17,985 nucleotides of DNA from Nitrosopumilales archaeon. Lineage in GTDB: Archaea > Thermoproteota > Nitrososphaeria > Nitrososphaerales > Nitrososphaeraceae. Shown here one piece after another: positions 1 through 16,851 of the stretch. Both the position numbers and the translations under genes were made by a program. The number at the start of each line of letters is the position of its first letter. The first letter of the stretch is position 1. The stretch spans positions 1-17,985 of the forward strand of contig JBIQJB010000035.1 of assembly GCA_044507735.1 (NCBI GenBank), given 5' to 3'. The notes beneath the pieces were generated by a model, which was given only the letters and a program-made list of their open reading frames with translations, was not told the DNA's origin and made no database searches.

Positions 1-313
1 GAGTAGTTTCTTTGTCTGCCCTTTCTTCTCCCCCTTGCCCCGTTTGATCATTGATGATGTAGAGGTGAAACATCCTAGTATTGCTCTTAAAACCGGCTCG
101 ACCCTTGAACTGCTTGCTGTACTCAAACAGCGGTTTGTCTGTTCTTAGAATCAGCTGCTTTCTCCACAGGTTTGATAACAAATGTGATATCGTCTTTTCA
201 TCAATGCCGGTAGCGTTGATAATATCTCTGGCTGATTTTGGCTTGCCATCTGCCAGTGCAGTCAGTACAGCTTTTACGTAATGCTCTCTGCCATGTACAA
301 TATCAGCCATCAT
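1..313 (-). CDS. Winged helix-turn-helix domain protein, partial (3' end runs off the window)
   Basis: Manual translation, not in the ORF track: ATG at 313 or 310 gives MMADIVHGREHYVKAVLTALADGKPKSARDIINATGIDEKTISHLLSNLWRKQLILRTDKPLFEYSKQFKGRAGFKSNTRMFHLYIIND..., open to position 1. The segment VLTALADGKPKSARDIINATGIDEKTISHLLSNLWRKQLI has a typical wHTH pattern. A TATA-like box lies upstream. Confidence 0.8.
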   Translation of the reverse strand, partial: MMADIVHGREHYVKAVLTALADGKPKSARDIINATGIDEKTISHLLSNLWRKQLILRTDKPLFEYSKQFKGRAGFKSNTRMFHLYIINDQTGQGGEERADKETT

Positions 314-331
314 TTACTGCACTCTCCAGTG

Positions 332-339
332 TATTTAAG
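332..339 (-). promoter_or_regulatory. Putative TATA box of the wHTH gene
   Basis: CTTAAATA on the minus strand, about 20 nt upstream of the ATGs at 313/310, a spacing compatible with a leaderless transcript. Confidence 0.45.
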
Positions 340-411
340 GCGGAGTTCAAACGGTTGCCTGTATTGTACGGTGCCGCAAAAAATCGATCTCGGTTATTCT
401 TGCTTGTTTGC

Positions 412-444
412 TGCCAAAGAGCAATATTCTTGCTCCTTTTGGCA
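412..444. repeat. Inverted repeat / hairpin just 3' of the tRNA
   Basis: TGCCAAA-GAGCAA [TATTC] TTGCTC-(CT)-TTTGGCA: 13-bp stem with a 2-nt bulge. Confidence 0.7.
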
Positions 445-500
445 AAGTTAGATGGTGCGGGGGGTGGGATTTGAACCCACGAACCCCTAAGGGACGGGAT

Positions 501-520
501 AACCCATTCCTATGTGAGAT
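501..520 (-). other. tRNA intron at canonical position 37/38 (20 nt)
   Basis: ATCTCACATAGGAATGGGTT. The BHB central helix is CTTA/TGGG (two G.U pairs), with bulges AG^A and TT^A. Confidence 0.88.
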
Positions 521-534
521 CTTAAGTCCCGCGT

Positions 535-551
535 CTCCAATTTTGTAGCCT
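535..551 (-). other. Non-canonical tRNA intron in the D-arm, position ~23/24 (17 nt)
   Basis: AGGCTACAAAATTGGAG. The central helix is CCAA/TTGG with bulges AT^A and AG^A. Removal restores the D-stem GTA/TAC. Confidence 0.82.
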
Positions 552-605
552 ATTTGGCCAGGCTCTACAACCCCCGCTGACCTATGACTGCGTTAGTGCA
601 GTGTG

Positions 606-613
606 TAATTAAA
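606..613 (-). promoter_or_regulatory. Putative TATA box of the tRNA-Leu gene
   Basis: TTTAATTA on the minus strand, 28 nt upstream of the mature tRNA 5' end. Confidence 0.55.
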
Positions 614-1171
614 TCTTGATCTCGTGTATGTATGCATGCGCGCATGTTTGTGTGTTTCCATCATGATGTGCGCGAGCAAGGCCGCTGCGAATCTTCATCG
701 ATAAGCGATCAGATATCACCATCTATCTGGGAAACGGGAGACGCACTCTAAACATAGCAGTATCAAGGCAGATCGGCGCCGGCCAGTTCTGTAACTCTGG
801 GCACCTCAACGAGCAGCGAGAATTGTCATTTGCAGCAGAAGCATACTGCTTGTGGATAACGTGTCCCCCTATTTGTCCACTCACTAGCGTGAAAACAAGG
901 GATGATGACTGTTGGTAGGCCCGATCTTTCCTAGCACCAATAGCATCCAGCGATAGGAGGGGGTCATTACATACCGAACCTAACAGGGATATTAGTTCCA
1001 TATCGAAGAAATTTGAAATAATTCAACTCTTTCGCTGACGGCTATGGTTCGCGACTATCTGATGGTGACGACCCTCAGCTAGATCTTGAACGTTATCGAA
1101 TCTCAGCAGATTGAGCCATTCTGAAAAAGGATTTCATAGCTGAAATAATCAACCCAGAGTAAGAAAACTAC

Positions 1172-4100
1172 CTACTCCAGTTTCACGTAGTTTCGTAATG
1201 GCGCCAGAGTCGGTGTATTGCTGCTGAGCCAGTGCAGCGTCTTTGTAAATGACGTTGCAGACTCTATCGTGGTCAGAACCGGTATCCCCATCTCGACTGC
1301 TTTTCTCCGAATTTGATACTCATCATACAGCATCCCTACGTACTTTTCGATCGTGGATGTGGCGGGAATGTTGATAATAAAATCGATCTTGCGTTCATAT
1401 AGCAAGTCCGCGATGTTAGGCTTTCTGTCCGGTTCACTTATCTTGTAAACCAGCTGTACATCTTTGAAGTTGTTGTTCTCCATAAATTCAGCGGTATGTT
1501 CTGTGGCAAGCATCTTGTAGTTCATGGAGGAAATAAGCGACACGATTGGCAGTAGCTTCTCTTTATTCTTTTGTCCCCCGACTGTTATCAACGCAGTTCC
1601 TGTCAACGGTAGGGAATAACCGGCAGCCATGTAAGCCTTGGACAGAGCGTCGTAGAACGAGTTGCCAAAGCACGCGACCTCGCCAGTCGACTGCATCTCC
1701 ACGCCTAGCACAATGTCTGAACCTTCGAGCTGCATGAACGAGAACTGCGGAACCTTTATTCCAAACCCGGTGGTCTTCAACCACAAATCTTTCGCTGTAG
1801 GTGGCAACTTCCTGCCAGTCATTGCCTTTGCGGCCAAGCTTATCAGGTTAAATCCAACGAACTTGCTCACAAACGGCATGGAACGCGACGCTCTGACGTT
1901 CGCTTCGATTACCGACACTTCACCATCCTTCACCAGATACTGAATGTTGAAGGGGCCCTTGACATTAAGCGCCTTTCCGATCTTGACAGAGTTGTCCACT
2001 ATGGTATCGATTGTCTCCCTTTCGAGACGCCAGGGCGGTATGCTCATCATAGCATCTCCGGAGTGGACGCCTGCATTGTCAATGTGTTCTATTACTGAAC
2101 CAATAATGACATCCGTACCATCTGACACAGCATCCACCTCTACTTCGGCTGCATCCTGCAGGAACTTGCTGATGACCACAGGGTGGTCGCGGCTAACGTT
2201 TGTTGCGTCAGTCAGAAATTGCTCCAGTTGCTGGTCTCCCCATACCACCTTCATGGCTGCGCCAGAGAGCACGTATGAGGGCCTAACAAGCACAGGGTAG
2301 CCCACCAAATCGGCAAATTCCTTTGCCTCTGCAAGAGAAGTAAACTTTCTCCATGCAGGCTGCTTTATTCCTAGTGTGTCGAGCAATTGACCGAATTTTG
2401 CGCGATCTTCTGCTCTGTCCACGTCTTCCGCGCTTGTTCCTACGATCTTGATTCCGTTTTTCGCTAATTTCGGTGTAAGGTTGTTGGCGGTTTGGCCGCC
2501 CACACATGTCACTACGCCAGTCGGCTTTTCTATTTCACAGATATCCAAGACCCGCTCCAGCGTTAGTTCATCGAAATACAGGCGATCGCAAATGTCGTAA
2601 TCAGTAGACACTGTTTCAGGATTGCAGTTGATTACCGAGATCTCCTTCACGCCATTGTCCTTGAGTCCCCATACCATGTTTACCGTCCCCCAATCAAATT
2701 CGACGCTGCTTCCGATCCTATATGGCCCAGCTCCTAGTACTATCATCCTCTTGCTCTTGTCATTCTCTTCCACCTTGATATCGTCTTCACTTCCTCCATA
2801 CGTCACGTAAAGGTAATTGGTTTTTGCGGGCCATTCCGCTGCAAGTGTGTCGATCTGCTTGACTGCCGGCTTGATCCCAAACTTTTGCCTGAATGCTCTA
2901 ACCTGCATCTCGTCAAGGTTCTGGCATCGGGCGATCTGTATATCAGAAAATCCCAATTTCTTTGCGCGCCTTATGATGTTTTCATCAAATCCGGTGGTCC
3001 TGCGCAGTTGTTCCTCCATGTCTACAATATTCTTTATCTTTGTAAGGAACCACGGATCAATGTAAGATAGCTGGTAGATCCTTTCGATCGACATGCCTGC
3101 CTTCATGGCCTCTACAACGTGGAAAATTATCTCGTCATTTGGATGAATCAAGGCTTGTTCGATCCTCTCCATGTCCTCAGGAGAGGGTATAGGAGGAGAA
3201 TTGGCATTTGCCACAAGACCGTCCTTGCCCATATCGCACATCCTTATCGCCTTTTGCACGACTTCCTCGAACGTCCTGCCGATTGCCATGACCTCCCCTA
3301 CCGACTTCATGGTACTTCCGAGCTTACGCTTCACCAGTTCGAACTTGGAAAAGTCCCATCGGGGCATCTTGAGCACGACATAGTCGAGCGACGGTTCAAA
3401 GCATGCGGTAGTCGCCTTTGTGATCCTATTTATCAGCTCTGGTAGAGTATAACCCAACCCTATCTTTGCAGCCATGTATGCAAGCGGGTATCCCGTGGCC
3501 TTGCTCGCAAGCGCCGATGATCTCGACAGCCTTGCGTTTATCTCAATGGCAGTATATTCCTCTGACTGAGGATCAAGCCCGAACTGGATATTGCATTCGC
3601 CCACAATGCCACAATAGTTTGTCGCCCTTATCGCGGCAGATCGGAGCATGTGGTACTCGTAGTTATTAAGCGTCTGCGATGGCGCGATGACAATGTTGTC
3701 GCCAGTGTGCACGCGCATTGCAAGGAGATTTTCCATATTGCAGACGATGACACTATTGCCCTTGTAGTCACGCATCACCTCGTACTCAATCTGCTTCCAG
3801 TGCCCGACGTAACGCTCTATCAGGATCTGGTGCACCATGCTGAGGTTGAGGCCCCTCTGCGCGATTTCTTGCAATTCGTATTCGTTGTATGCTACTCCGC
3901 CTCCCCTGCCTCCGAGGGTGTATGCAACCCTGATTATGACAGGGTATCCTATTTCGTTGGCAGCCTTGAATGCCTCATCCAATGAATTGACCGCAAAACT
4001 GCGGAGCACAGGTACATCGCTCTTTATCATTGCATCCTTGAAGAGCTGCCTGTCCTCCGTGATTTCAATCCCCTTGATCTGTGTCCCTAGCACCCTTATG

Positions 4101-4456
4101 CCATACTTTTCCAAGATGCCCTGATCGTGCAATGCGACACCGCAGTTGAGCGCCGTCTGACCGCCAAACCCAAGCATTATCGAGTCAGGCCTTTCCATCT
4201 CGATTATTTTTTCAACGTTGGCAGTATTGATCGGTACTGGATACACCTTATCAGCAAAGCGCGTATCAGTCTGGATAGTTGCGATGTTGGGGTTTATGAG
4301 GACGCTCTTTATGCCCTCCTCTGCTAGAGCCTTGAGGCATTGCGAACCGGAGTAGTCGAACTTGCGGCCAGTTTACTGGCTCTCGCCTGCTTCTCCGATT
4401 TTTATTGCACCGCTGCCTAGCACGAGTACTTTTCTTATCGATTCATCCCTTGGCGC
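1172..4456 (-). CDS. carB: Carbamoyl-phosphate synthase large subunit, split: exon 1 4456-4382, exon 2 4360-1172 (about 1087 aa if spliced)
   Basis: Two ATP-grasp domains (IIRVAYTLGGRGGG, VRPSYVLSG, IEINARLSRSS, IEANVRASRS), GPYRIGSSVEFD, NCNPETVSTDYD and a C-terminal MGS-like domain. The ORF-track start at 4246 is truncated: the same frame upstream encodes xPRDESIRKVLVLGSGAIKIGEAGE, then a 21-nt insert, then FDYSGSQCLKALAEEGIKSVLINPNIATIQTD. The start codon is uncertain (see findings). Confidence 0.93.
4361..4381 (-). other. Candidate 21-nt BHB-type pre-mRNA intron in carB
   Basis: AGCCAGTAAACTGGCCGCAAG lies between the GAG (Glu) and TTC (Phe) codons of the conserved GE-FDYSG motif. It contains an in-frame TAA (4375-4373), an internal hairpin GCCAG-TAAA-CTGGC and a relaxed BHB at both junctions. 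Confidence 0.75.
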
Positions 4457-5744
4457 CTTTTTTCACCCCTTTCTTTTTTGCGGATTTTTTCAATGGCTTA
4501 TTTGTCTTTTTCTTCATCATCGGCCGCGTCGACTTCTTTGGAAGTGTCTGCGTTGGCGACGATGCCGGATTCTTGCTCATTCCGTTAGTGATAACCTCTT
4601 TGAAGCGGTCAAATACATACATGCAGTCGTATGGCCCTGGCGAGGCCTCTGGGTGGAACTGCACCGCGATTATAGGCTTGCTCTTGTGCTCAATTCCTTC
4701 CACCGTGTCGTCATCTGCGTTTTCAAACCAGACCCTGAAGCCGGATTTTTCAAGTGTCTTTGGATCTATCCCATATCCGTGGTTCTGGCTCGTCACGTAG
4801 ACTTGGTTATTGTGTCTGTCGATACACGGTTTGTTCTGCCCTCTGTGACCAAATTTCAGCTTGTAAGTGTCAGCACCACCTGCAAGCGCAAGTATCTGAT
4901 TTCCTAGACATATCCCAAGAGTTGGTGTAGACTCTTTGATCAATTTTGAAGCCGTCTTGATCGTGGGTGTGCAGACCTTGGGGTCGCCCGGGCCGTTGCT
5001 TATTACGACGCCCTTTGGGTTATAGGACATTATCTGATCGTGTGTTGCATCCCAAGGGAGGCGCACGACGCGGTAGCCCGTCCGCATGATGTTTCTTATT
5101 ATGCTGTATTTGACGCCTGTGTCGAGGACTACAATGCAGTCTTTCGCCTTGTCGCCATACTCTTGTGGCTTGTCTGTCGACACTTCAGGCATAAAGTTGA
5201 GACCATCATACTTTGCATTTGCGAGTGCCTCTTTCAGCTGCACGTCTGTTATCTCTCCTTCTTCTTTGGAAACAATAACTGCGCCCATCATGACTCCCTT
5301 CACTCGCAGTTTTTTCGTTAATGCCCTAGTGTCGATGCCATAGATCCCAGGCACCTTTTCTTCATAGAGCCATTGGTCCAGCGTTTTTGTGCAGCTCCAG
5401 TGGCTTGCAATATCTGACAAATCATGAATCAATAGTGCCTTGACCTGTATCCGGTCTGATTCAAAGAACTTTGGTAAACCATACTCGTCTTTGATGTCAA
5501 AGCTCGGGACCCCGTAGTTGCCTATAAGAGGGTAGGTCATGCACAGGATCTGGCCGCGGTACGATGGGTCGGTCAGCGTTTCGGTGTAGCCCACCATCCC
5601 GGTGTTGAACACGACTTCGCCACCAATTTCAGAGGGATAACCAAAGCCGATACCGTCAAAAACACTGCCATCTTCTAGAATGAGCTTGGCCTTGTAGCCA
5701 GTGTAGGTCTGTTGCAGTGTTGGAATTTTTTGAACCCTCACCAA
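4443..5744 (-). CDS. carA: Carbamoyl-phosphate synthase small (glutaminase) subunit with a Lys-rich C-terminal tail
   Basis: LILEDG, GEVVFNTGMVGY, TDPSYRGQI, SNGPGDP, catalytic GICLG, KFGHRGQN, SQNHGY and QFHPE motifs. The start is TTG 5744 or GTG 5741. Confidence 0.97.
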   Translation of the reverse strand: MVRVQKIPTLQQTYTGYKAKLILEDGSVFDGIGFGYPSEIGGEVVFNTGMVGYTETLTDPSYRGQILCMTYPLIGNYGVPSFDIKDEYGLPKFFESDRIQVKALLIHDLSDIASHWSCTKTLDQWLYEEKVPGIYGIDTRALTKKLRVKGVMMGAVIVSKEEGEITDVQLKEALANAKYDGLNFMPEVSTDKPQEYGDKAKDCIVVLDTGVKYSIIRNIMRTGYRVVRLPWDATHDQIMSYNPKGVVISNGPGDPKVCTPTIKTASKLIKESTPTLGICLGNQILALAGGADTYKLKFGHRGQNKPCIDRHNNQVYVTSQNHGYGIDPKTLEKSGFRVWFENADDDTVEGIEHKSKPIIAVQFHPEASPGPYDCMYVFDRFKEVITNGMSKNPASSPTQTLPKKSTRPMMKKKTNKPLKKSAKKKGVKKGAKG

Positions 5745-5759
5745 CTGTTAAAGTAAGCA

Positions 5760-5774
5760 AATTTAAATTTTTTC
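5760..5774 (-). promoter_or_regulatory. BRE-TATA promoter of carAB
   Basis: GAAAAAA-TTTAAATT on the minus strand, about 20 nt upstream of the carA start. Confidence 0.65.
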
Positions 5775-6243
5775 ATTCAAGTGATCTGCGGGATATGCAT
5801 GACAGGAACGGCTATTGGTTGATGCTGCTCGGCCCATTCCATGGCTGCCTTGCTCACGGGTATGCCATCATAGATCCACGTCTTGCTGAAGAGTTCGGTT
5901 ATGCAAGTTTCTTCCATCGGACAGACCATACCCATAACGCCCTATTTTCTCAGGAGGATGTCGGTTCCACAATCAGATGCACTTCATAACCGTTCTCCAT
6001 TCCGCCTCAGCAGGATTTGAACTTTCACAGGCCCTTGCAGGCAGGGCCATCTCCTCAGAAATAAGGGGCAGGGTCTGGTATTAGGATGCGATTTGGATGA
6101 AATTGCGGGACACACGGACACGAAGCCAGGGGCCAACAACGTTGCTTGCTTTTTTCAGTGCTTTTTAACTAGACTGACTACTACTTGCAGAAGGCCCATC
6201 CGGGATAGAGTAATATTGTTGGCGTACCTATGAAACACACGCC

Positions 6244-6624
6244 TTGCAGACACGACATCGTTGCGCGATCTGTGGTTCCAGATTTGCCGAGCGTAAGTGC
6301 TACTACTGTGAAAGCAAAGTCTGCACATCATGCGTCGTCCCAGTCGAAGTGTCGGGCTCGACGACAAAGTGCCTGACCTGCGACAGGAGAAAAATAAACA
6401 AACTAAGCTTTGCTCAACTGATGAGACGCAACTATTACCTATTTGCGATAATAGTCGCCTACTGGCTATTCACTGTATTTCCAATACCTTTTATGCACCT
6501 TGCGGGCCTTGAGATTAACCCGACCGCATTCCAACCTGTGCTCATAGCCACTGCGGCTATGACGATACCATTTGTGTTCTTGTTCGTCGCATGGCAGAGG
6601 AAGGCACCTAGAGGATACTCATAG
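6244..6624 (+). CDS. Hypothetical Zn-finger membrane protein (four CxxC motifs and two predicted TM helices)
   Basis: CAIC, CYYC, CTSC and CLTC, followed by the hydrophobic segments YYLFAIIVAYWLFTVFPIPFM and VLIATAAMTIPFVFLFVAW and a basic C-terminus. TTG start. Confidence 0.8.
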   Translation: MQTRHRCAICGSRFAERKCYYCESKVCTSCVVPVEVSGSTTKCLTCDRRKINKLSFAQLMRRNYYLFAIIVAYWLFTVFPIPFMHLAGLEINPTAFQPVLIATAAMTIPFVFLFVAWQRKAPRGYS

Positions 6625-7544
6625 TGCCGTTTGGATGATTCCTTAAGCAAACGGTCAACCACGGCCGTTTTTGGATCGCGTTGCCATCGGAGAATGTTAT
6701 AGTATTCTAGCCTGCCATTAGCTCTTTCTGCCTCGATGGCGACATGTGATTTTGTTCGCTCTTGGCGTGTATCGGCAGCAACCAGGCAATCAAGAATAGA
6801 CCTCACCAACCATCCAATCGCACAGCCAGAGTGACTGGCAATGTCGCTATGAACGAGGCGTAGGACCTGGCGGCATTTATTGTCATCACCCAGCCCCTCT
6901 GAAGCATCTCTTGGTGGCCCTTGGAAAACGAGCTCAATATCTGCAAATAGCCCGGGCGGCGATAGGATATGACCTCACGGTGACAGAATGTCAACAGTGA
7001 GACCGTATTTCAACAAAGCATCCATGCACGGCTTCGAATCAAATGAGCACCGATCGGCTGATCCGGAAAAATGCGGTTGCCATGACAGGTCTTTGATTTG
7101 AAAGTGCCTTTATAGACCATCACTGCCCAGCGTAGCATTGAGCAGAACTGATGATCCCCGCAGACGAAAAAGAGGAATGACGGAATTAACATATCAACAA
7201 CACGTATCTCGCGATTTAAGGACAATAATCCAACCGCACTAGGACTATGCTGTCATCGACAGGTGACACTGATCTACCACTATAGAGTTTTAGTTGTCCG
7301 AAGGCTATAGGGCGCAGGCTAGCTCCAAAACGGCGGTGCCACTCTATTCCCATGATTGTGATTTCTTTCTGTGTGGTTCAAGAACAAGCTCCATCTTGAA
7401 AGCGAAGTATATGTAAAATTGAAGCGCAGAGACAACCGCGTTGAAATTCCCCTCCAGACCAGGCTAGTAAAGGAACAAGCCATCGTCGGCATTGCACAAT
7501 AACTCAGATAGAAGCTGAGGTACAATTCGTGTTCTCTGCAGAGG

Positions 7545-7553
7545 AAAAACAAA
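7545..7553 (-). terminator. Putative U-rich terminator after leuB
   Basis: TTTGTTTTT on the minus strand, starting 2 nt after the leuB stop codon. Confidence 0.45.
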
Positions 7554-7555
7554 GT

Positions 7556-8581
7556 CTAGTACAACGCTCTTGCTACGAGCTCTGTGAATTCCGTAGTTGA
7601 CAGACTGCCGCCAATATCCTTTGTCTTTTTCCCTTTTCTCAGTACATCGACGATGGCGTCCTCGATGCGCTTTCCTTCCGTTATCGCGTTCTTATCGCCG
7701 TGCTTGTCACCCAACCACTCCAACATCATCTTTGCTGACAGCATTATTGAAGATGGGTTTGCAGCATTCTTGCCTGCGATGTCAAATGCTGCACCGTGAA
7801 CGGGCTCGAAGAGTGCGAATTGTTCGCCAATGTTGGCTGCAGGCCCCATGCCAAGGCCGCCAACTACTTGAGCCGCCTCGTCTGATAGGATGTCGCCAAA
7901 GAGGTTGGTCGTGACGATAACATCGAACTCTTCGGGGTTGCGGATCAAGTTCATTGAACACGCATCCACATAGAGCTCGCTGTATTGTATCTCGGGGTAT
8001 TTCTTAGCAACATCCTTGCACGTGGCGGCAAAGAGCCCGTCTCCTTTGCGGAGCACATTTCTCTTGTGCACTGCGACCACCTTGCGCTTGTCATTGCGGA
8101 GCATCGCAGTCTTGAAAGCGTATTCCGCTATCCTGCGGCTAGCTCGTTCTGACGTCACTCTGAGAGCCACAACAGTACTTTCATCTGCGTTAAACTCCCA
8201 GCCCAAGTAAACGTCTTCTGTATTCTCTCTGACGGTAACAAGGTCAACATTATCAGATAGGCAAGGGATGTTTGGGTATGACTTGGCGGGCCGAACATTT
8301 GCGTAGAGGTCAAACATCCTCCGGAGCACGATTATGACGTCGGCGGCGCTTTCGCCTACCGGTCCCTTCAAGCATGCCTGTGACTTCTTTATCGTGTCGA
8401 CAGTCCATTCAGGCAGCGCCTTGCCGTGCTTGGCCAGTGCACCATCCCCAGCGTCCACTTCGCTTATATCAAATTTCGTAGAAGACCTGTCACTGATTGT
8501 TTCAAGGATTTTCTTTGCTGCAGAAATCTGCTCCGGACCGATCCCATCGCCCCTAATTAGGGAAATATTGTATCTTGCCAA
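7556..8581 (-). CDS. leuB: 3-isopropylmalate dehydrogenase (isocitrate/isopropylmalate dehydrogenase family)
   Basis: GDGIGPE, LYANVRP, VRENTED, NLFGDILSDEAA and FEPVHGAAFDIAGKNAANP motifs; lies directly downstream of leuA. TTG start. Confidence 0.88.
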   Translation of the reverse strand: MARYNISLIRGDGIGPEQISAAKKILETISDRSSTKFDISEVDAGDGALAKHGKALPEWTVDTIKKSQACLKGPVGESAADVIIVLRRMFDLYANVRPAKSYPNIPCLSDNVDLVTVRENTEDVYLGWEFNADESTVVALRVTSERASRRIAEYAFKTAMLRNDKRKVVAVHKRNVLRKGDGLFAATCKDVAKKYPEIQYSELYVDACSMNLIRNPEEFDVIVTTNLFGDILSDEAAQVVGGLGMGPAANIGEQFALFEPVHGAAFDIAGKNAANPSSIMLSAKMMLEWLGDKHGDKNAITEGKRIEDAIVDVLRKGKKTKDIGGSLSTTEFTELVARALY

Positions 8582-8605
8582 TCAGATCATCATCTGTCTG
8601 TCTTT

Positions 8606-10126
8606 CTAGCTCTTAGAATATAGAGTCTGTCTTAGCAGCACCTTGTTTATGGCGTCCATCATTGCCTGCACGGACGCGACGACGATGTCTTCCCCAGATT
8701 TCGTCGCAGAGACGATGTTCCCGTCCTTGTCCTCCACCTTGATGGTAACGACAGCCAGAGCATCAGAGCCGCCTGCGATAGAATCGAGCATAAAGTCCCT
8801 TATCTTGATGTTGGCCATTTCGCCAGCTATTTTTTGTATCGCCTTGAGTGCTGCATCCACAGGTCCAACTCCTGTTTCAGCGGCTATGAGGTCCTTGCCG
8901 TTAGCATTGAGCCTGATGACTGCCGTGGGTATCGCGTTCATACCTGTAAAGATGTTGAAGTCATAGAGCTTGAACTTTTCCTCAAACTTGCTGTTGCCCA
9001 TTATCTCGCCGGCAATTGCTAGTAACTCCGAAGTCGTTATTGACTTGCCTTTGTCGGCGATGTTCTTTTGCTTATCTACTATCTGTCTTAGCTGCTCGTC
9101 TGTTGGTTTGATTCCAAAGTCCTCTAGCATTGCCCTTATGCCGTGAGCGCCGGCGTGCTTGCCTGCCTGAAGCCATCTTTTCCTGCCAACAAGCTCTGGC
9201 GGTATCGGCTCGTATGTAAGTGGGTTGTTGATGACTCCGTGGGTATGGATACCAGACTCGTGGCCAAATGCATTTTCTCCTATAATGGCCTTGTTCGGCT
9301 GGACAATGATTCCCATCGTGTTTGACACGAACCTCGAAGTCTCATAGATAAGCTTGGTGTTAATGTTATGCTTTTTGTTGTAGAGGATCTCTAGTGCCAT
9401 CACAAACTCTTCAAGCGACGCGTTGCCTGCCCGCTCTCCGAGCCCATTTATTGTTACATGTGCGCATGCCGCTCCAGCATTTATACCCGCGATCGCATTG
9501 GCGACGGCAAGCCCAAAGTCATTATGGCAGTGCATGCTTATCGGAAGGTGAGTCACGCTCTTGACATCCCTCACAATCTCAGCCATATATTCCGGTGTCC
9601 TGTAGCCGACTGTATCGGGTATGTCTATCCTATCGGCGCCAGCCTCTGTGACTGCCTTGAACACCTTTAGCAAAAACTGCCGGTCAGACCTCGTTGCGTC
9701 TTCAGCAGAGAACTCTACTTGCATGCCGTGCTTTTTCGCGTATTCAACTGCTCTGACTGCCCTCTCCAACACCTGCTGTGGCTCCATCTTGAGCTTGTAC
9801 TTCATGTGTATGTCTGACGTGGCGATGAATGTGTGGACATAACCCAAATCGCACTTTATCGCAGCGTCAATGTCGGTTTCGGCTGCACGTGCCAGGCCAC
9901 AGATCTCCGCCTTCAATCCCTGTTTTGCTATCGTCCTAACTGCCTGCATTTCCCCTTGTGAAACTATTGGAAAGCCGGCCTCTATAGCGTCGACTCCAAG
10001 CTCATCTAGCTTTATTGCAATTTGGACCTTTTGTTCAGGTGCAACAGTCACACCAGGTGTCTGCTCACCGTCCCGGAGAGTGGTGTCAAATATCCTCACC
10101 TTGTCGTTATTATTGCGGTTGTTCAT
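8606..10126 (-). CDS. leuA: 2-isopropylmalate synthase (LeuA/CimA family) with C-terminal regulatory domain
   Basis: IFDTTLRDGEQTPG, HTFIATSDIH, EFSAEDATR, HCHNDFGLAVAN, NGLGERAGNA, HESGIH and GVGPVDA motifs. The start overlaps the ilvH stop (TAATG). Confidence 0.9.
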   Translation of the reverse strand: MNNRNNNDKVRIFDTTLRDGEQTPGVTVAPEQKVQIAIKLDELGVDAIEAGFPIVSQGEMQAVRTIAKQGLKAEICGLARAAETDIDAAIKCDLGYVHTFIATSDIHMKYKLKMEPQQVLERAVRAVEYAKKHGMQVEFSAEDATRSDRQFLLKVFKAVTEAGADRIDIPDTVGYRTPEYMAEIVRDVKSVTHLPISMHCHNDFGLAVANAIAGINAGAACAHVTINGLGERAGNASLEEFVMALEILYNKKHNINTKLIYETSRFVSNTMGIIVQPNKAIIGENAFGHESGIHTHGVINNPLTYEPIPPELVGRKRWLQAGKHAGAHGIRAMLEDFGIKPTDEQLRQIVDKQKNIADKGKSITTSELLAIAGEIMGNSKFEEKFKLYDFNIFTGMNAIPTAVIRLNANGKDLIAAETGVGPVDAALKAIQKIAGEMANIKIRDFMLDSIAGGSDALAVVTIKVEDKDGNIVSATKSGEDIVVASVQAMMDAINKVLLRQTLYSKS

Positions 10127-10665
10127 TATGGCTCAACCCCTCTTGGAAGCGCAGATACGCCTGTCCTTGAAATCTGCGCAATACCATAATGTTCTACCAG
10201 ATTCTTAAACGCATCTATCTTGTCTGGGGTCCCGGTTATCTCTACGGTTATCGTTTCCTTGCCGATGTCAAGTATGCTGCCCCTAAAGATGGTAGCATAG
10301 TTAATTATCTCACTCCTCGTAGTAGGGTCGACAGCTTTCATCTTTATCAGCGCAAGCTCTCTGTAGACTGTCTTGCTAGTATCGAGAACCTTTACTTCTA
10401 CGACATCTATCAGCTTCCGCAACTGTTTTACCAACTGGTCAAGCGTACGCTCATCACTATTGGTTGTGATCGTCATCCTTGAAAGATCCTTCTGCTCAGT
10501 CGAACCCACAGTTATGCTTTCGATGTTGAAATTGCGAGCGCGGAAAAGGTTAGTCACCCTGAAGAGAACACCAGGTTTGTTTTCCACAAGAGCAGTCACA
10601 ATGTGCCAGGACCCTTTTGGATTATCAGTATTTGTTGATGTTGCTGTAGCGGTACTACTCACCAA
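10126..10665 (-). CDS. ilvH: Acetolactate synthase small (regulatory, ACT-domain) subunit
   Basis: LVENKPGVLFRVTNLFRARNFNIESITVG, QLRKLIDV, RELALIK and RTG motifs; lies downstream of ilvB. Confidence 0.95.
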   Translation of the reverse strand: MVSSTATATSTNTDNPKGSWHIVTALVENKPGVLFRVTNLFRARNFNIESITVGSTEQKDLSRMTITTNSDERTLDQLVKQLRKLIDVVEVKVLDTSKTVYRELALIKMKAVDPTTRSEIINYATIFRGSILDIGKETITVEITGTPDKIDAFKNLVEHYGIAQISRTGVSALPRGVEP

Positions 10666-10670
10666 ATCAA

Positions 10671-12359
10671 TTACGCTCCTGTTATCATATCCTTGAGGCC
10701 GCTACCGGGGGCTACGAATGGATATACGTCTTCGTCAGGATCTATAGGGATATCTATCACGGTGGCGACGTCACTCTTTATCGCCGTCTTGATCGCCTTT
10801 TCGAGCTCCTGCATCGATCCCACCCTTATGCCCTGCGCGCCATACGCTTCTGCAATCTTGACATAGTCAGGACAGTTGTGTTGGTGTACTCCGCTATAGC
10901 GCCTGTTGTAGAATGTGCGCTGCCATTGCGCCACCATGCCAAGCATGTAGTTGTTCATAAGAAATACAATAACAGGCAACTTTTCAAGCACGGACACTGC
11001 AAGAGAGTTCTCGGTCATGTTGAACGAGCCGTCGCCGGCAATGTCCACAACCGGTACATCCGGAGCAGCAGCCTTTGCTCCTATCGACGCAGGGAAGCCA
11101 AAGCCCATCGTGCCAAGCCCTGTCGAACTAAAGAAGGTGCCTGGCGAAATTACGTCAAAGTGAAGCGAGGCCCACATCTGGCATTGACCTACTTCTGTGG
11201 TCACAATACCTTTTGCAGGCAACAATTCACGCAACTTTTTCAGCGACTTCTTGGCCGTGATCTCTCTTGGATAGTCCTTGAGAGTCTCAGAGTAATACTG
11301 TATTAGCTCCCTCCTGCGCTTGAGCCAAGGGTTGTCCGGCGACCTCTTGGCTATTTTCTTTGAGAGCATCTTGACGAGCGTGCGGAGCGATGACTTGACG
11401 TCGCCTACAAGAGCCACATCCACGGATTTGTTCTTCCCGATTTCGGCAGGGTCGATATCCATGTGGATTATGCTCATGCCCTTGCCAAATTCATCGAATC
11501 GTCCTACAGACCTGTCGGAGAACCTTGCGCCGACCGCCACAATGCAGTCTGCCTCAACAATTATCTTGTTGGCCTCCGCATGTCCATGCATGCCTATCGG
11601 GCCCATTGCAAGTGGATGATTCTCCGGGAATGCACCCTTGCCCTTGAAAGTAGTAACCACAGGTATCATAAGCAGCTCGGCCAACGCCTGAAGTTCCGAG
11701 AATGCGCCAGAGAGAATCACACCTCCGCCAGCCATTATTATCGGCCTCTCGGCCTTTACAAGAATTTCAACAGCCTTGCTCATCTCGCGAAGGTCGGCAT
11801 CTACAACAGGGTTGTATCCTCGCACCTTGATGAGGTCGGGGAACTTCATGTCTGCGGTGGCCTGTTGCACGTCCTTCGGAATGTCTACCAGCACAGGCCC
11901 GGGTCTCCCGCTCTCAGCTATGTAGAATGCTTTCTTGACCATCTCGGGGATCTCATTTGCCATTCTTGGTTGGAATGCATATTTTGTGCACGGATTGGCA
12001 ACTCCGATGATATCTGTCTCTTGGAATGCATCTTTCCCTATCATGTTGAGCGGCACTTGGCCAGTAACGGCCACAATCGGTGACGAGTCTGCATATGCGG
12101 TAGCGATGCCTGTAATCAGATTAGTTGCTCCGGGGCCCGAGGTCGCAAAACAAACGCCGGCCCTTCTCTTTATCCTTGCATACCCGTCAGCCATGTGGGC
12201 TGCAGATTGCTCATGTCTGACAAGCACGTGTCTCAAGTTTGCATCTACAAGAGCATCATATATCGGAAGATTCGCTCCTCCAGGAAGTCCAAAGACTACA
12301 TCTGTCCCTTCCTTCTCGAGGGCCTGTATCAAGGCCTTTGCGCCAGTCATTTCAACCAA
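10671..12359 (-). CDS. ilvB: Acetolactate synthase large subunit, biosynthetic type
   Basis: VFGLPGGA, RHEQSAAHMADGYAR, TSGPGATN, GRPGPVLVDIPKD, GLGTMGFG and the TPP motif GDGSFNM...NN. The start is TTG 12359 (GGTGA SD at 12373-12369) or ATG 12350. Confidence 0.97.
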   Translation of the reverse strand: MVEMTGAKALIQALEKEGTDVVFGLPGGANLPIYDALVDANLRHVLVRHEQSAAHMADGYARIKRRAGVCFATSGPGATNLITGIATAYADSSPIVAVTGQVPLNMIGKDAFQETDIIGVANPCTKYAFQPRMANEIPEMVKKAFYIAESGRPGPVLVDIPKDVQQATADMKFPDLIKVRGYNPVVDADLREMSKAVEILVKAERPIIMAGGGVILSGAFSELQALAELLMIPVVTTFKGKGAFPENHPLAMGPIGMHGHAEANKIIVEADCIVAVGARFSDRSVGRFDEFGKGMSIIHMDIDPAEIGKNKSVDVALVGDVKSSLRTLVKMLSKKIAKRSPDNPWLKRRRELIQYYSETLKDYPREITAKKSLKKLRELLPAKGIVTTEVGQCQMWASLHFDVISPGTFFSSTGLGTMGFGFPASIGAKAAAPDVPVVDIAGDGSFNMTENSLAVSVLEKLPVIVFLMNNYMLGMVAQWQRTFYNRRYSGVHQHNCPDYVKIAEAYGAQGIRVGSMQELEKAIKTAIKSDVATVIDIPIDPDEDVYPFVAPGSGLKDMITGA

Positions 12360-12420
12360 TTTTATTTTTCACCAAATTTCTCTCTGCAAACGCCTGCTCG
12401 CCTGCTAGACAGGGTTTGCT

Positions 12421-12480
12421 CTAGGCAAGTCTCAGTAGAACCAGAACATGAACCTTGTGTTCCCTGTCAGCCCTAGGCAT
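12421..12480 (-). CDS. Putative leader peptide of the ilv-leu operon, MPRADREHKVHVLVLLRLA (19 aa)
   Basis: ATG CCT AGG GCT GAC AGG GAA CAC AAG GTT CAT GTT CTG GTT CTA CTG AGA CTT GCC TAG. The ATG is 24 nt after the TATA box, at the predicted transcription start. Seven of codons 10-18 are Val or Leu. The ORF ends 61 nt before ilvB. Confidence 0.72.
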   Translation of the reverse strand: MPRADREHKVHVLVLLRLA

Positions 12481-12504
12481 TTTTGATGAATTGCACTAAT
12501 ATAA

Positions 12505-12512
12505 TTTATAAA
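12505..12512 (-). promoter_or_regulatory. TATA box of the leader-ilvB-ilvH-leuA-leuB operon
   Basis: Consensus TTTATAAA; predicts a transcription start near 12480-12482. Confidence 0.7.
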
Positions 12513-12580
12513 GTTAACGTCCATTAAGGCAGATAATCCGGTATCTCTGAAGGTCACAAACGCCGAAAGCCGCACCATTT

Positions 12581-12595
12581 ATGCAATAATTGCAA
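12581..12595. promoter_or_regulatory. Palindromic operator-like site (Lrp/AsnC-like)
   Basis: ATGCAATAATTGCAA with a perfect TGCAAT-A-ATTGCA dyad, about 70 nt upstream of the ilv TATA box. Confidence 0.4.
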
Positions 12596-12934
12596 TGCAT
12601 TTCCAACTTTCGTTGACCAGCTAGCTTGGCATTCGTATGGATGATTATCTGTTTGTTGATAATAACTGGTTTTTAGTCACAAATCGAGATTGCGAAAAAT
12701 GAGGAAAAACTCGTGCAAGCGATACCATCCTTAGAATTGTGCGCCACTGCTCACGCAAACTCCAGCAGTGGTGAGAAACAGAACGCCTGCCCAAAAGCCG
12801 GTCACCCAACCGGGGCTGGCCACTAGGGCTTGTTATCCTATACAACATCAGCGGGTGACTTTACTGCACTGGGCCGAAAGCAGCACACATACTATCCATA
12901 ACCTGAGAAGGTTAAAGTCAGTTTATTAGACTGT

Positions 12935-13372
12935 GTGCTCAGACAGAACATCAGATTGGTTGCTTCAACTACTGATTCTGCTAAGGTACGTGACCTGATT
13001 TACGACTATTTTCAACTCGCTAAGACTAAAGAGATTGAAAAGATAGAAGAGTTTCTGGATCCAGGTTTTACCAAGTTCGGCGATTCGCCCCCGTACGACC
13101 GGCGGGACTTTGAGCGCGCCCTAATGCTTGAGCAGCTTCAGTTTGCGAGCTTGTCCGACTACGACTTCAAGATCGAAGACATGAAGACAGAGATAATGGG
13201 AGACGCTGCGATTGCGACATTTGTTTTGCAGATAACGGGCATGATTGTAGACGACTATAGCTTTCGCGGAACAGCAATCAACAACAGATCAAGGGCGACT
13301 GTCGTCCTGAAAAAGGACAAAAACGGTCGGTGGAAAATAATCCACCAACACCTGTCAAAACTTGTGGTCTAG
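12935..13372 (+). CDS. SnoaL-like / nuclear transport factor 2 (NTF2) family protein
   Basis: An N-terminal helix followed by beta strands with the typical pattern GDAAIAT...SRATVVLKKDKNGRWKIIHQHLS. The start is GTG 12935 or a slightly downstream TTG. The stop overlaps the convergent aldolase stop (CTAG). Confidence 0.88.
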   Translation: MLRQNIRLVASTTDSAKVRDLIYDYFQLAKTKEIEKIEEFLDPGFTKFGDSPPYDRRDFERALMLEQLQFASLSDYDFKIEDMKTEIMGDAAIATFVLQITGMIVDDYSFRGTAINNRSRATVVLKKDKNGRWKIIHQHLSKLVV

Positions 13373-14214
13373 TCGAACGATCCGGATTGGCTTACTGCCT
13401 TTAGAACCTTTGATTCTTTGTGCTCAGGCTCTTTCTCCTTCTCTTTCAGGAAAATGCCGTACGCTTCCTTGTGATCAGCATTCTTGTGGACAATCGCGCG
13501 TATGGCCTTTATCATGGCCACAGGGTAGTCGGACTGCCAGATGTTCCTCCCCATGTCAACGCCTACTGCACCGTGTGTGATCGAGTCGTATGCAAGCTTT
13601 AGTGCATCGGGCTCAGGTAGCTTCTTGCCGCCTGCGATTATTAGCGGGACGGGACAGCCCTCAGCTACCTGTTCAAAGTTTTCGCAATAGTACGTCTTTA
13701 CAATGTGAGCGCCTTGTTCTGCAGCAACCCTGCATGCAAGACCCAAGTAACGGGCATCGCGGCCCATTTCTTTTCCGACCGCAGTGACTGCCAGAACAGG
13801 AATTCCGTACTTTTCTCCTTCGTCCACGAGCTTGGCCAGGTTTGCAAGCGTTTGGTGTTCATACTTGCTTCCAACAAAAATTGAGAGCGCAAGGCACGCT
13901 GCGTTTAGCCTTATTGCTTCTTCAATAGAAACGGTGATAGTTTCCTTGGAAAGATCCTCTCCAATGATGCTCGTACCACCAGAGACTCGAAGCACTATGG
14001 GCACGTCAGTTGTAGGTTCAACCGATGTCCTCAACACGCCTCTTGTAAGCATCAGAGAGTCTGCATAGGGCAGAAGCGGCGCTATTGTCTTTCTCGGGAC
14101 TTCGAGCCGTTCTGTCGGACCCAAAAAGTAGCCATGGTCAACTGCGAGCATAAGGCAGCGGCCGTCTTCGGGGCGAATTATTCGAGATAGCCTGTTTTTC
14201 ATTCCCCAGTCCAT
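13369..14214 (-). CDS. lsrF: LsrF-like DhnA-family class I aldolase/thiolase
   Basis: MDWGMKNRLSRI, MLAVDHGYFLGPT, Schiff-base Lys in GAHIVKTYY, IAGGKK and GVDMGRNIWQS, all characteristic of the LsrF subfamily. Confidence 0.85.
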   Translation of the reverse strand: MDWGMKNRLSRIIRPEDGRCLMLAVDHGYFLGPTERLEVPRKTIAPLLPYADSLMLTRGVLRTSVEPTTDVPIVLRVSGGTSIIGEDLSKETITVSIEEAIRLNAACLALSIFVGSKYEHQTLANLAKLVDEGEKYGIPVLAVTAVGKEMGRDARYLGLACRVAAEQGAHIVKTYYCENFEQVAEGCPVPLIIAGGKKLPEPDALKLAYDSITHGAVGVDMGRNIWQSDYPVAMIKAIRAIVHKNADHKEAYGIFLKEKEKEPEHKESKVLKAVSQSGSFD

Positions 14215-14244
14215 AAACTATCGGAGTCTAAGGGCCTCTCTAAT

Positions 14245-14257
14245 TATTTATAGTTTC
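14245..14257 (-). promoter_or_regulatory. BRE-TATA promoter of the lsrF-like gene
   Basis: GAAAC-TATAAATA on the minus strand, 30 nt upstream of ATG 14214. Confidence 0.65.
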
Positions 14258-14367
14258 TACGGCACCTGCTTGTTTCAAGACCGATCTTGCGCTCGCATCC
14301 TGTTTTTCCCTTGTCAGATAGTATTGTAGGAACCGAAAGACAACACGAGTGATGAACTGGGCCGTTC

Positions 14368-16167
14368 CTAGTTCGTCGCGGGAAGCGTAAACGTGAACCT
14401 GGCTCCAACCCCACAAGGATTGTTCTCTCCCCACATCTTGCCGCCATGCGCCTCGATCACGTTCTTTGAGACGTAGAGGCCCAGACCTGTGCCCGACTCC
14501 GACTTTGAGACAAACCTGGTAAACAGTTTTGGCATTATCTCTGGGTCAATGCCCTTGCCCGTATCCATGATTACAACCTTGGCGAAATCCCCTTCCCGAG
14601 TGAGAGTAATATCTATCGCACCCTCCTTTGTGAACTTGATCGCGTTTCCGATTAGGTTGGCGAGCACTTCGTAAATCCTTGTCATATCGGCCTCCACAAA
14701 GAGCGGCGGCCCCGGAAGAAAGTTGATGGTTACGCCTTTAGCAAGCCCTGTCTTCATGTCCCTGACCGTGTTCAGGATCTTTTCATTCATGTCAAATCTT
14801 TCTTTATTTAGGACAAGTTTGTTGCTCTCTATCCTCGTTACATCCAGGATGTTTTGCGTCAATTTTTCGAGCCTCTTTGCATTGCGTTCAAGCATCTTGA
14901 CTTCTTCTCTTGACATTAGCACCCCTTCAGCCTTCTCGGATTCTGACCTGTCCTTCAACAGCTCTGCTATCCCGAGCAGTGGCTGTACTGGCGTGCGCAG
15001 CTCGTGAGCCGCGATGTTGATAAAATCGCGTTGCATCCTGTCGTGTTCGTCGAGCTGTTCATTTGCCCTTTCGAGCTTTATGTTAGATTCTATAAGGGAC
15101 TCGTTTGTTTGCCTCAGCTCACCGGTCTTTTCCTCCACAAGTCTTGCGAGCCTCTTATTTGAAGACACCGTCATGAGGACTACTGCTCCGGCTATTGCGC
15201 CTACTGCAACGATAAATATGGTATTGAGTGTCCTCTGGCTGTCTATGATTGGGGTTATTTCTTCGTCAAAGGTATGGACTGACAGGATGTAAAGCATTGC
15301 AAAGTCTATGCCATCTATTTGCACGCTTTGATATGCAAGCGTCATGCTAGCACCTCCGGTGCTGATGTCCTCGAAGCCATCCTGCCCTTGCAAGGAGCGC
15401 CTCAAGAAATCGATAATCTGCCCGCTTATGTCTTGCGGGAGCTGCGAGCGATATTCTTCTGTGAAGACATTCATCCCGATCTGTGACTCGTTTGAGGCAT
15501 AGTGTATTGTACCGGTGCGATCTACAAGACCCGTAGTGCTCTGGAAATCAGAAGATATCTTAGACTGGAGGAACCGGCCGACATTGATCGGCTGGACAGA
15601 TGCGACAATTGCGCCTTCAAATTCACCATTGCCGCTTAATACAGGATACGAAATGAAAAACCGCGGGCTACCATCTAGCGAGCTGATCACGCTCGTGATG
15701 TAGGGTTGAAGTGTCTGCTTTGGAACCTGAAAATATGGTCTGTCTGTCCTATCTGTTCCCGCAAAATGCTGATACAAAGTTCTGTTTGTAAAAGAACTTG
15801 ACCAGAGCAGCTTGCCTTCACGATCAAGCCACAAGTAACTATCTGTTATATCCTTTGTAGATTCTTGGGCAGCTGCCATGGTAAATTGTGCGCGGGACAC
15901 TTCTTGGGCATGGACAGATGAAGAGTTTGCTATGATCTTAAGGTTAGCCATCACTGACTCCATCCTGACCCTTAGTATCTCCGAAAGATCGTGTGCGGCT
16001 ATCCGGGAATTTTCGTGTACCTCTTCAATCGCGTTCCGTTCCACTGCGTCAGCCACGTAGCTTGAATAAGAGTACGAGGCGACGGCCGTGGACACTACTG
16101 CCACAATGACTATCGGAATGACAATGGCGTCTGTTCCCGTCAACATGCGCCCAAAGTGCAAGTCCAC
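14368..16167 (-). CDS. Membrane sensor histidine kinase (TM, dCache, TM, coiled coil, HisKA, HATPase_c)
   Basis: Two hydrophobic helices flank a Cache-like domain (WLDREGKL, DRPYFQ, PYIT, GEFEGAIVA). H-box FINIAAHELRTP, N-box NLIGNAIKFT, G-boxes DTGKGI and GTGLGL. The start is GTG 16167 or ATG 16146. Confidence 0.95.
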   Translation of the reverse strand: MDLHFGRMLTGTDAIVIPIVIVAVVSTAVASYSYSSYVADAVERNAIEEVHENSRIAAHDLSEILRVRMESVMANLKIIANSSSVHAQEVSRAQFTMAAAQESTKDITDSYLWLDREGKLLWSSSFTNRTLYQHFAGTDRTDRPYFQVPKQTLQPYITSVISSLDGSPRFFISYPVLSGNGEFEGAIVASVQPINVGRFLQSKISSDFQSTTGLVDRTGTIHYASNESQIGMNVFTEEYRSQLPQDISGQIIDFLRRSLQGQDGFEDISTGGASMTLAYQSVQIDGIDFAMLYILSVHTFDEEITPIIDSQRTLNTIFIVAVGAIAGAVVLMTVSSNKRLARLVEEKTGELRQTNESLIESNIKLERANEQLDEHDRMQRDFINIAAHELRTPVQPLLGIAELLKDRSESEKAEGVLMSREEVKMLERNAKRLEKLTQNILDVTRIESNKLVLNKERFDMNEKILNTVRDMKTGLAKGVTINFLPGPPLFVEADMTRIYEVLANLIGNAIKFTKEGAIDITLTREGDFAKVVIMDTGKGIDPEIMPKLFTRFVSKSESGTGLGLYVSKNVIEAHGGKMWGENNPCGVGARFTFTLPATN

Positions 16168-16454
16168 CGCGCGATCACCATCCGGACATATTTGACGTTA
16201 TTAATTATTCAAGGAGACATTATACGTGAGATTCTTCTATAGACTCAATGCAGGCACCGTGCAATAGTTTGAAATCGCAGCCGCAACAAATTCTGCGCCT
16301 TCACAGGATGAGTCCGTTTCTCCGTCTCTTGCTGGGAACAAGACGGAATAACAATAGGTATCTGCAAGATCGTACCTTTTGTAAACTCATGTTCGAGTTC
16401 CTCTGTTGGGTCACTTGAATTCTAGCTATCAGAATATCTTCTTGTTTTTCAAAG

Positions 16455-16803
16455 ATGGTCAAGAGTGCGAATAATTTCTATTGGTTGTTCGCTATATCGA
16501 CATCAGATAACAGAAACATGAGATACACCGGTGCGACAGATAGCAGTGGCAGGAACTTTGTTGTAGGTGAAAATCATAGACAGATCCAAATCCTATGATA
16601 ACTGCAATTAAGACAGTATATCTTGTTCAGAGCGCAGTCGGCAACAGCAGGGGCGCCGCCGGCCCCTTTGCCATCAGCAGCATGATTTACTTGCTACACA
16701 TGAAGGAAGAAGGGGCCCAGGTCAGCTGGGACATCACATTGCTGAAAAGCTTGCGACCGTTGTGCAGTTACACAGGATAGATAGTAATTCGAATTTCGAT
16801 TGA
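16455..16803 (+). pseudogene. Possible decayed roadblock/profilin-like (DUF6659-type) gene
   Basis: Protein-like fragments in different frames: 16455-16598 ...DNRNMRYTGATDSSGRNFVVGENHRQIQIL*, then 16595-16780 MITAIKTVYLVQ..., then GHHIAEKLATVVQLH...*. The family resemblance is judged from memory only. Confidence 0.25.
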
Positions 16804-16851
16804 CCTCTTGGTCTACTGCCATCCAATTATCGCAAAAATACCAAGAAGCAC

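Follow-up and report, generated by a model that had tools for sequence, protein, structure and literature searches.

A probable bulge-helix-bulge intron in the carbamoyl-phosphate synthase gene carB of Nitrososphaerales archaea

Spliced protein-coding genes are rare in archaea. The archaeal splicing endonuclease (EndA) cuts after the second nucleotide of each bulge in motifs of the bulge-helix-bulge (BHB) type, and a pre-mRNA intron in cbf5 of Crenarchaeota was reportedly described by Watanabe in 2002. Here we analyze a further candidate, located in carB, which encodes the carbamoyl-phosphate synthase large subunit and is a central gene that serves the synthesis of a precursor of arginine and pyrimidines. 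The DNA studied is a 17,985-nucleotide (nt) stretch from a soil Nitrosopumilales archaeon of the Nitrososphaeraceae (assembly GCA_044507735.1, contig JBIQJB010000035.1, positions 1 to 17,985), hereafter termed the window. A segment of 21 nt, at positions 4381-4361 of the minus strand, interrupts its carB coding sequence. We consider it very probable that this segment is a BHB-type intron, removed by an EndA-type endonuclease together with the ligase RtcB. The group that hosts it comprises globally abundant ammonia-oxidizing archaea, and the insert is conserved across many of their genera.

In the 2020 Haloferax study by Schwarz, cbf5 is given as the only additional BHB intron reported until then, and the same study adds a BHB intron in the 5′ untranslated region (5′UTR) of Haloferax volcanii HVO_1309 (PMC7714728). 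A preliminary description of the window, made from its letters, had named cbf5 as the one well-established archaeal pre-mRNA example; this holds for coding sequences, and the HVO_1309 intron has to be added to it. In Table 1 of Yokobori (2009), the cbf5 genes of Cenarchaeum and Nitrosopumilus, the two thaumarchaea included there, have no intron (PMC2738675).

As far as the accessible accounts of cbf5 go, its intron and that of carB have in common that they are of BHB type and lie in coding sequence, that the tRNA-splicing machinery of archaea with a two-subunit endonuclease removes them (presumably so for carB), that their distribution is patchy, with gains or losses among relatives, and that they mislead gene prediction. 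They differ in the gene concerned (an RNA-modifying enzyme versus central metabolism), in the host group (Crenarchaeota versus Nitrososphaerales) and in intron position, which in carB is 25 codons from the start. Like the HVO_1309 intron, that of carB would be a target of the archaeal splicing endonuclease that belongs to an mRNA instead of a tRNA or rRNA; the HVO_1309 intron is placed in an untranslated leader and is independent of the reading frame, whereas that of carB interrupts coding sequence. The relaxed-BHB tRNA introns of Thermoproteota, which two-subunit endonucleases cut (PMC5829648), follow the same motif logic, tolerate a missing outer helix and would be expected to use the same enzymes. 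In contrast to them, the carB exons are coding sequence without a tRNA body, and the central helix is made from Gly and Glu codons.

Among eukaryotes, the HAC1/XBP1 mRNAs resemble carB in having a very short coding intron, an endonuclease that reads RNA structure, a tRNA-type ligase and no spliceosome, and in that removal alters what the ribosome can read. IRE1 recognizes twin stem-loops in these mRNAs, and their splicing is a proven stress switch. IRE1 is unrelated to the archaeal endonuclease, and the carB element is known as an intron only. Such unconventional splicing, by IRE1 and a tRNA ligase or RtcB, is mentioned in PMC13149111 and PMC12530127. A full-text literature search, with subscription papers and supplements outside its reach, returned no report of a carB intron; the archaeal mRNA introns that it did return were those of cbf5 and of the Haloferax 5′UTR. 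After cbf5, carB is the second archaeal protein-coding gene in which splicing is clear.

The carB locus and its insert

The minus strand of the window reads GGA GAA GCA GGC GAG, followed by the 21 nt AGCCAGTAAACTGGCCGCAAG and by TTC GAC TAC TCC GGT. The insert is located between the GEAGE and FDYSG codons and contains an in-frame TAA. Translation across it gives ...GSGAIKIGEAGE SQ*TGRK FDYSGSQCLK... (the asterisk being the stop), and the residues upstream of the insert-encoded part are ...KVLVLGSGAIKIGEAGE. On its 3′ side, 1062 codons are open down to position 1175. By Pfam this part is a complete CarB: CPSase_L_D2, CPSase_L_D1, CPSase_L_D3 and MGS are matched, both pre-ATP-grasp domains and the oligomerisation domain included, with E-values of 1e-108 (CPSase_L_D2) and 8e-74. 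Codon by codon, exon 1 can be aligned to intron-less homologues in which the start position holds ATG, GTG or TTG.

When a natural intron-less homologue was used as the query, the structures of human CPS1 and E. coli CarB aligned without a gap across the boundary between GEAGE and FDYSG. The seven extra codons therefore sit inside a motif that normally tolerates no insertion. As the unspliced RNA can give only a peptide of about 27 residues, CarB synthesis is splicing-dependent. The only long carB open reading frame (ORF) listed in the window has 1024 amino acids (aa) and begins at a downstream GTG, so that the N-terminal exon is lost from the gene call. Standard gene callers cannot yield a complete CarB from genomes of this kind, and metabolic reconstructions that use such calls may be affected.

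The sequence features put forward in the preliminary description, that is, the 21-nt insert with its in-frame TAA splitting Glu from Phe and an otherwise intact carB, are as it had given them. Among the findings that would speak against an intron it had named a second intact carB, with this copy under relaxed selection. No second carB is present in the genome (97% complete, 55 contigs); the sole other match (contig C17) is an ATP-grasp protein, 29% identical, and was discarded.

Conservation and predicted fold of the insert, and RNA-level excision of a homologue

We sampled carB 5′ regions from the same genus and from 16 other families of the order, together with 80 named public contigs (Nitrososphaera, Nitrosocosmicus, Nitrosopolaris, Nitrosotenuis, Nitrosotalea and one Nitrosomirales record) and further Nitrososphaera members that include three single-contig genomes; named cultured strains are in the set. 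An insert was found exactly between the Glu and Phe codons in 109 of the 123 parsed loci (window included) and was absent in 14. Some of these loci are the same contig obtained via two routes, and the unique sequences amount to 86 with the intron and 10 without it. Three loci were left unparsed, two of them cut by contig ends (L024, L053) and one with the insert visible by eye and exon 1 lacking (L085). Two loci from genomes flagged as unpublished (L010, L013) were counted, and nothing rests on them. All three single-contig genomes of the same genus carry the insert, and in one of them (L114) it differs from that of the window by one base.

The length of the 109 inserts ranges from 17 to 40 nt, most commonly 21, 22 or 26 nt. 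Every one of them disrupts the gene: 66 cause a frameshift, and the 43 that keep the frame each contain a stop. Each of the 28 unique in-frame introns has an in-frame stop, a count that was 8.7 on average in mononucleotide shuffles and was reached by none of 2000, with the reservation that relatedness among the sequences inflates such counts. The stop belongs to the hairpin loop in some introns and to the last codon in others. In the other two frames, stops occur in 0 and 6 of these introns. The pattern suggests that translation through the unspliced copy is selected against.

Direct RNA evidence comes from a cultured strain of the same genus, with a single-contig genome (L113), which has a homologous 33-nt insert at its positions 1468-1500. 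Its carB locus is covered by 20 RNA-seq runs from five studies, four of which were examined (X1, X15, X22 and X23). X23, X1 and X15 belong to three different studies; X22 had no depth over the intron. In the raw reads of X23, 775 reads (10 + 765) with 82 start places join position 1467 to 1501. This joint skips 33 nt, has the ends AG..AA and shares no letters between its two sides (both = 0). Depth in X23 was about 300 inside the intron and about 920 and 1100 in the flanking bins, which puts the spliced share at between about two thirds and three quarters of the RNA. Among the contigs of X1, the spliced form has a depth of 1869 and an unspliced 92-nt contig a depth of 155; X15, which bears a different organism label, contains a 3222-nt contig with the spliced junction. 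First mates map to the minus strand, the orientation that most stranded libraries would give if the RNA is in the sense direction of carB.

The junction joins the last base of exon 1 to the first base of the Phe codon, GAG to TTC. The two cuts (^) that it implies, A-G^A and A-A^U, each follow the second bulge nucleotide. The junction peptide predicted for spliced carB in this congener is ...IGEAGEFDYSGSQCLK. The homologous 33-nt intron is thus exactly excised at the RNA level in the congener, and from this we infer its excision in the organism of the window. The preliminary description had proposed that a pre-mRNA intron is cut after the second nucleotide of each bulge, restoring GAG-TTC, and had suggested looking for junction reads and aligning carB 5′ ends. 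The congener reads and contigs and the same-site inserts with covarying stems agree with it.

For the analysis of RNA structure, the 86 unique intron-bearing sequences were each anchored at both splice sites. They have the same architecture throughout: exon GGCG opposite intron CGYN, a 3-nt bulge A-R^A, a hairpin, and A-N^U at the 3′ end. Three pairs of the central helix are kept in all 86, including one GGUG/CACC double change, in which the Gly codon of one lineage went from GGC to GGU together with intron CGC to CAC. The 5′ bulge, flanked by the central helix and by the covarying intron hairpin, is AA^A in 71 sequences, AG^A in 14 and AA^T in one. The hairpin, with at least five pairs, starts at intron position 2 and is paired in 96.7% of cells; four of its five pairs have changes on both sides, and the second one is U-A in 41 sequences, C-G in 38 and U-G in 7.

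Taking the structure as named, 93.8% of cells are standard pairs, versus 84.4% in shuffles (0/500 as high). Considering all five covariation measures, shuffles as high numbered 0/500 on four and 1/500 on the fifth, and five of nine pairs changed on both sides (80 cells). When the 3′ partner was slid by 1-3 columns as a control, pairing was 6-44%. RNAalifold, given the alignment only, recovered the hairpin and the three central-helix pairs unaided. The insert is conserved, covarying and invariably disruptive. In place of an outer GAA/UUC pairing, RNAalifold offered a discontinuous GGAG/CUCC pairing between exons, whose columns are coding and change only from G-C to G-U. A self-splicing group I or II intron was ruled out, as 17-40 nt stand against a catalytic fold of hundreds of nucleotides and Rfam has no family match at the intron.

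According to the mechanism that we propose, the GGCG at the end of exon 1 would pair with CGCA in the 3′ part of the intron to form a short central helix, and the 5-base-pair (bp) hairpin of the intron itself would be the inner helix. The 5′ splice site would lie in the 3-nt bulge A-G^A between hairpin and central helix, and the 3′ splice site in the 3-nt bulge or loop A-G^U across the central helix, with almost no outer helix. The splicing endonuclease would then cut both bulges by its usual rule, and RtcB would ligate the exons into GAG-TTC, giving an uninterrupted CarB (…GEAGEFDYSG…). The coordinates of these elements are given in Table 1.

Several points weigh against this interpretation. 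Beside the 3′ bulge, pairing between the exons is limited to one position (kept in 91% of 86 unique sequences), the four beyond it being paired in 0-8%. Of the elements in the preliminary description, the hairpin with its TAAA loop, the helix GGCG/CGCA and both triplets, AG^A and AG^T, are present; the outer GAA/UUC pairing that it also suggested is not supported. As the 3′ site has no convincing outer helix, the motif is a relaxed BHB rather than a canonical one. The fourth pair of the central helix is G-C in 31 sequences, G-U in 21 and G.A in 34, and the window has G.A. Folded alone, a 48-nt stretch of the window reaches -14.7 kcal/mol, only modestly better than shuffles, of which 7 in 200 did as well (z -1.92), and the minimum-energy structure differs from the BHB. 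Splicing in the window's organism is deduced from an intron with another loop length (21 versus 33 nt), and the endonuclease and RtcB are known here from their genes. Finally, exon 1 has GCG at the start position and no canonical start codon from which the spliced mRNA would be translated. The case beyond chance rests on the comparative and RNA-seq data, the single fold being unconvincing on its own.

With regard to distribution within the order, single representatives of families f1, f3, f4, f8, f10, f13 and f14 have the insert, and it is absent from those of f2, f5, f7, f9 and f15 and from two genomes of f12. An even sample of 43 genomes of family f13 contained 17 with a continuous carB and 17 with an in-frame insert with stops; in the other nine the match begins at residue 18-25, indicating an out-of-frame insert, and two of these, inspected by eye, have inserts of 20 and 22 nt. 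Outside the order and within the same class, 16 of 47 sampled genomes gave a carB match, 15 continuous and one with an insert. This one insert, of 23 nt, is at the same carB site and belongs to a genome of family f20 in another order (L132, G463:C32:4650-5300); it could reflect either an older origin or a transfer of carB.

On a quickly built protein tree (111 unique rows), intron state has to change six times, two of these changes being forced by well-supported branches; on the DNA tree of the genus it has to change three times, one change being forced. An approximately unbiased (AU) test against a single intron-less clade gave p = 0.03, the group having been named after the tree was seen. 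On these trees, the simplest history would be one old intron gain followed by several exact losses, and the locus offers a clean system for the study of precise intron loss. Identical 18 nt (GCC GGC GAG TTT GAC TAT) stand at the exon junction of L007, L042, L119 and L126 (and L125). Four of the seven unique intron-less Nitrososphaera rows share them, and a fifth differs by one base. The tree of the downstream gene places the four sharing rows in three groups, so that the intron-less 5′ segment may have spread by recombination among Nitrososphaera.

Table 1. Positions in the window of carA, carB and the elements of the proposed intron.
Feature	Position	Strand	Details
carA (small subunit)	4443..5744	-	Pfam CPSase_sm_chain + GATase; upstream of carB
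Shine-Dalgarno-like GGGGTGA	4463..4469	-	6 nt before GCG; same spacing before ATG in intron-less L020
carB exon 1	4382..4456	-	25 codons, (GCG)-PRDESIRKVLVLGSGAIKIGEAGE; conserved start position holds GCG
Probable BHB-type intron AGCCAGTAAACTGGCCGCAAG	4361..4381	-	21 nt, in-frame TAA; homologous inserts in 109/123 loci
carB exon 2	1172..4360	-	1062 codons + stop, from FDYSG; Pfam domains
Predicted central helix, exon strand GGCG (Gly-Glu codons)	4384..4387	-	opposite 4366-4363
Predicted central helix, intron strand CGCA	4363..4366	-	alignment + covariation
Predicted 5′ bulge A-G^A	4381..4383	-	cut between 4382 and 4381; congener RNA junction
Predicted intron hairpin GCCAG-TAAA-CTGGC	4367..4380	-	5 pairs; covariation + RNAalifold
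Predicted 3′ bulge or loop A-G^T	4360..4362	-	cut between 4361 and 4360; at most 1 conserved outer pair

Putative splicing enzymes, start position and alternative explanations

The genome of the window encodes two splicing-endonuclease ORFs, of 181 and 212 aa and located on contigs C24 and C22, each with PF01974 and PF02778 (N and C domains), and one RtcB ORF (PF01139). The two endonuclease ORFs are 29% identical to each other; by eye, the 181-aa ORF keeps Tyr, His and Lys resembling the catalytic triad, and the 212-aa ORF lacks the His. Judging from their genes, the two diverged paralogues probably form a two-subunit (alpha-beta)2 heterotetramer, and this enzyme and RtcB would be the ones that splice carB. 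In the accessible part of PMC5829648, no types of endonuclease other than (alpha-beta)2 and epsilon2 cleave non-canonical introns. With regard to the chemistry at a BHB, the accessible part of PMC12397907 describes an attack of the 2′-OH of the second bulge nucleotide on the phosphate of the third. As a natural minimal substrate (17-40 nt, with dozens of covarying variants), the carB intron lends itself to studying how a two-subunit endonuclease reads a relaxed motif without a tRNA body.

The start position of carB in the window, 4456-4454, is occupied by GCG, 10 nt before the carA stop, and there is no canonical start. The carA stop comes 10 nt after, and a Shine-Dalgarno-like motif 6 nt before, the ATG, GTG or TTG from which the intron-less homologues begin M-P-[KR]-D-E. 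The carA frame ends at TGA 4445-4443 and overlaps exon 1 by 14 nt. Among 35 unique intron-bearing loci of Nitrososphaera, the codon at the start position is TCG in 25 and GCG in 10; all seven unique intron-less loci of this genus have ATG, GTG or TTG. In other genera with the intron it is mostly ATG (24) or TTG (19), with CTA, TTT, ATA, CTG and GTA also found. In some loci, L006 among them, the whole of exon 1 is devoid of ATG, GTG and TTG. Since 75 nt separate the start codon from the intron site, the association between intron and codon may be mere linkage.

The congener RNA was also inspected at the junction of carA and carB. No second joint and no indel were found in the stretch examined, and a second intron, base editing or slippage at this junction were discarded. 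At the start position itself no base change reached 5% or more (depth about 330); the sole change nearby is G>C at L113 1387, 6 nt upstream of the start position, in 7 of 132 reads. A fusion of CarA and CarB by a +1 frameshift was likewise considered and is unlikely, because both the window and L114 have an in-frame TGA two codons upstream of this position, and there is no slippery site in common. Our guess is a termination-reinitiation coupling to carA with a relaxed start codon, and the missing start codon points to an unusual mode of initiation. A more ambitious model combines obligatory splicing, with the stops as a selected fail-safe that leaves output gated by RNA processing, and initiation at a non-start GCG or UCG coupled to the ribosome that terminates on carA, 10 nt further downstream. 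Taken as a whole, we regard this model as unlikely.

A little less likely still is that the intron is spliced and serves in addition as a regulatory gate, the switch suggested in the preliminary description, the output of CarB being tuned by the rate of splicing. The unspliced minority in X23 (intron depth about one third of the flanks) and in X1 (155 versus 1869) would fit such a role, as would the universal in-frame stops, which look as if read-through were selected against, and the retention of the intron in most lineages of the order. However, the unspliced fraction may be nascent RNA, and exact intron loss has taken place at least twice and up to six times with the gene retained, 17 of 43 genomes of one family being without the intron. 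As it was lost repeatedly without loss of the gene, the intron is dispensable.

As for the enzymes, a different nuclease and ligase, or some factor reading the conserved motif GGCGAR followed across the cut by AG...CCGY, might carry out the same exact splicing. We deem this very unlikely. In its favor, the outer helix expected of a canonical motif is missing at the 3′ site, and the strong conservation of exon and intron letters by the sites could mean sequence-specific recognition. Yet the protein motif accounts for much of what is conserved in the exons, and both endonuclease subunits and RtcB are encoded. Moreover, the four-position central helix between two 3-nt bulges fits the cleavage rule as given in the accessible part of PMC12397907, and two-subunit enzymes are reported to accept relaxed motifs in that of PMC5829648.

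The evidence at the RNA level is all based on cDNA, and reverse transcriptases can skip structured segments. The skipped reads could in principle be jumps over the hairpin, the insert being kept in the mRNA and the protein made by ribosomal bypass or frameshift. This is highly improbable: the two sides of the junction have no letters in common, the hairpin has only 5-9 bp, both forms are seen, and the skipped form predominates in three libraries that differ in type and come from three studies. Inserts of 17-40 nt in any phase would, in addition, need a separate recoding event in each lineage. Programmed translational bypass or frameshifting was rejected, as most RNA in the three libraries is without the segment.

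That carB is a pseudogene undergoing decay, or that sequencing or assembly of this metagenome-assembled genome introduced the insert by error, is scarcely credible in spite of the in-frame stop near the 5′ end and the lack of a canonical start codon, given that the sole carB of the genome keeps 1062 intact codons with Pfam matches as strong as stated above, that its single disruption is at a shared site and not scattered, that the insert recurs in 109 of 123 loci, three single-contig genomes included, and that its helices covary and the congener RNA is spliced.

Neighboring genes and minor observations

Beyond its GATase domain, CarA has a Lys-rich tail of about 50 residues (window 4446-4595, minus strand). 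The part of carA that encodes it includes the ribosome-binding region of carB and a 14-nt overlap with that gene, and the tails of relatives are similarly rich in Lys, Arg and Gly. In the congener, 45 molecules of X23 end at L113 1386, just upstream of the carB start position, and between carA and carB the depth falls to about 170-185, from where it climbs to about 780-920. The ends at L113 1386 may represent a processing site, an internal 5′ end or noise.

A strict motif scan of the genome of the window (stem of at least 5 bp, intron of 14-60 nt) returned 4903 motif matches, of which 95 passed an open-frame filter and 28 had no nearby start codon. By eye, only carB has protein-like flanks among them; the scan was narrow and is not evidence that similar introns are absent.

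The preliminary description had also reported a non-canonical tRNA intron in the window. At positions 453-577 of the minus strand there is indeed a tRNA-like gene with extra segments, and its structure was only partly verified: it was missed by ARAGORN and by Rfam gathering scores and gives only a weak match to the tRNA clan (E 7e-4). By eye, it resembles a tRNA-Leu(UAA) that is longer by about 20 nt at position 37/38 or close to it and by 11 nt between the D arm and the anticodon stem. Such a gene is consistent with a genome that relies on a permissive endonuclease.

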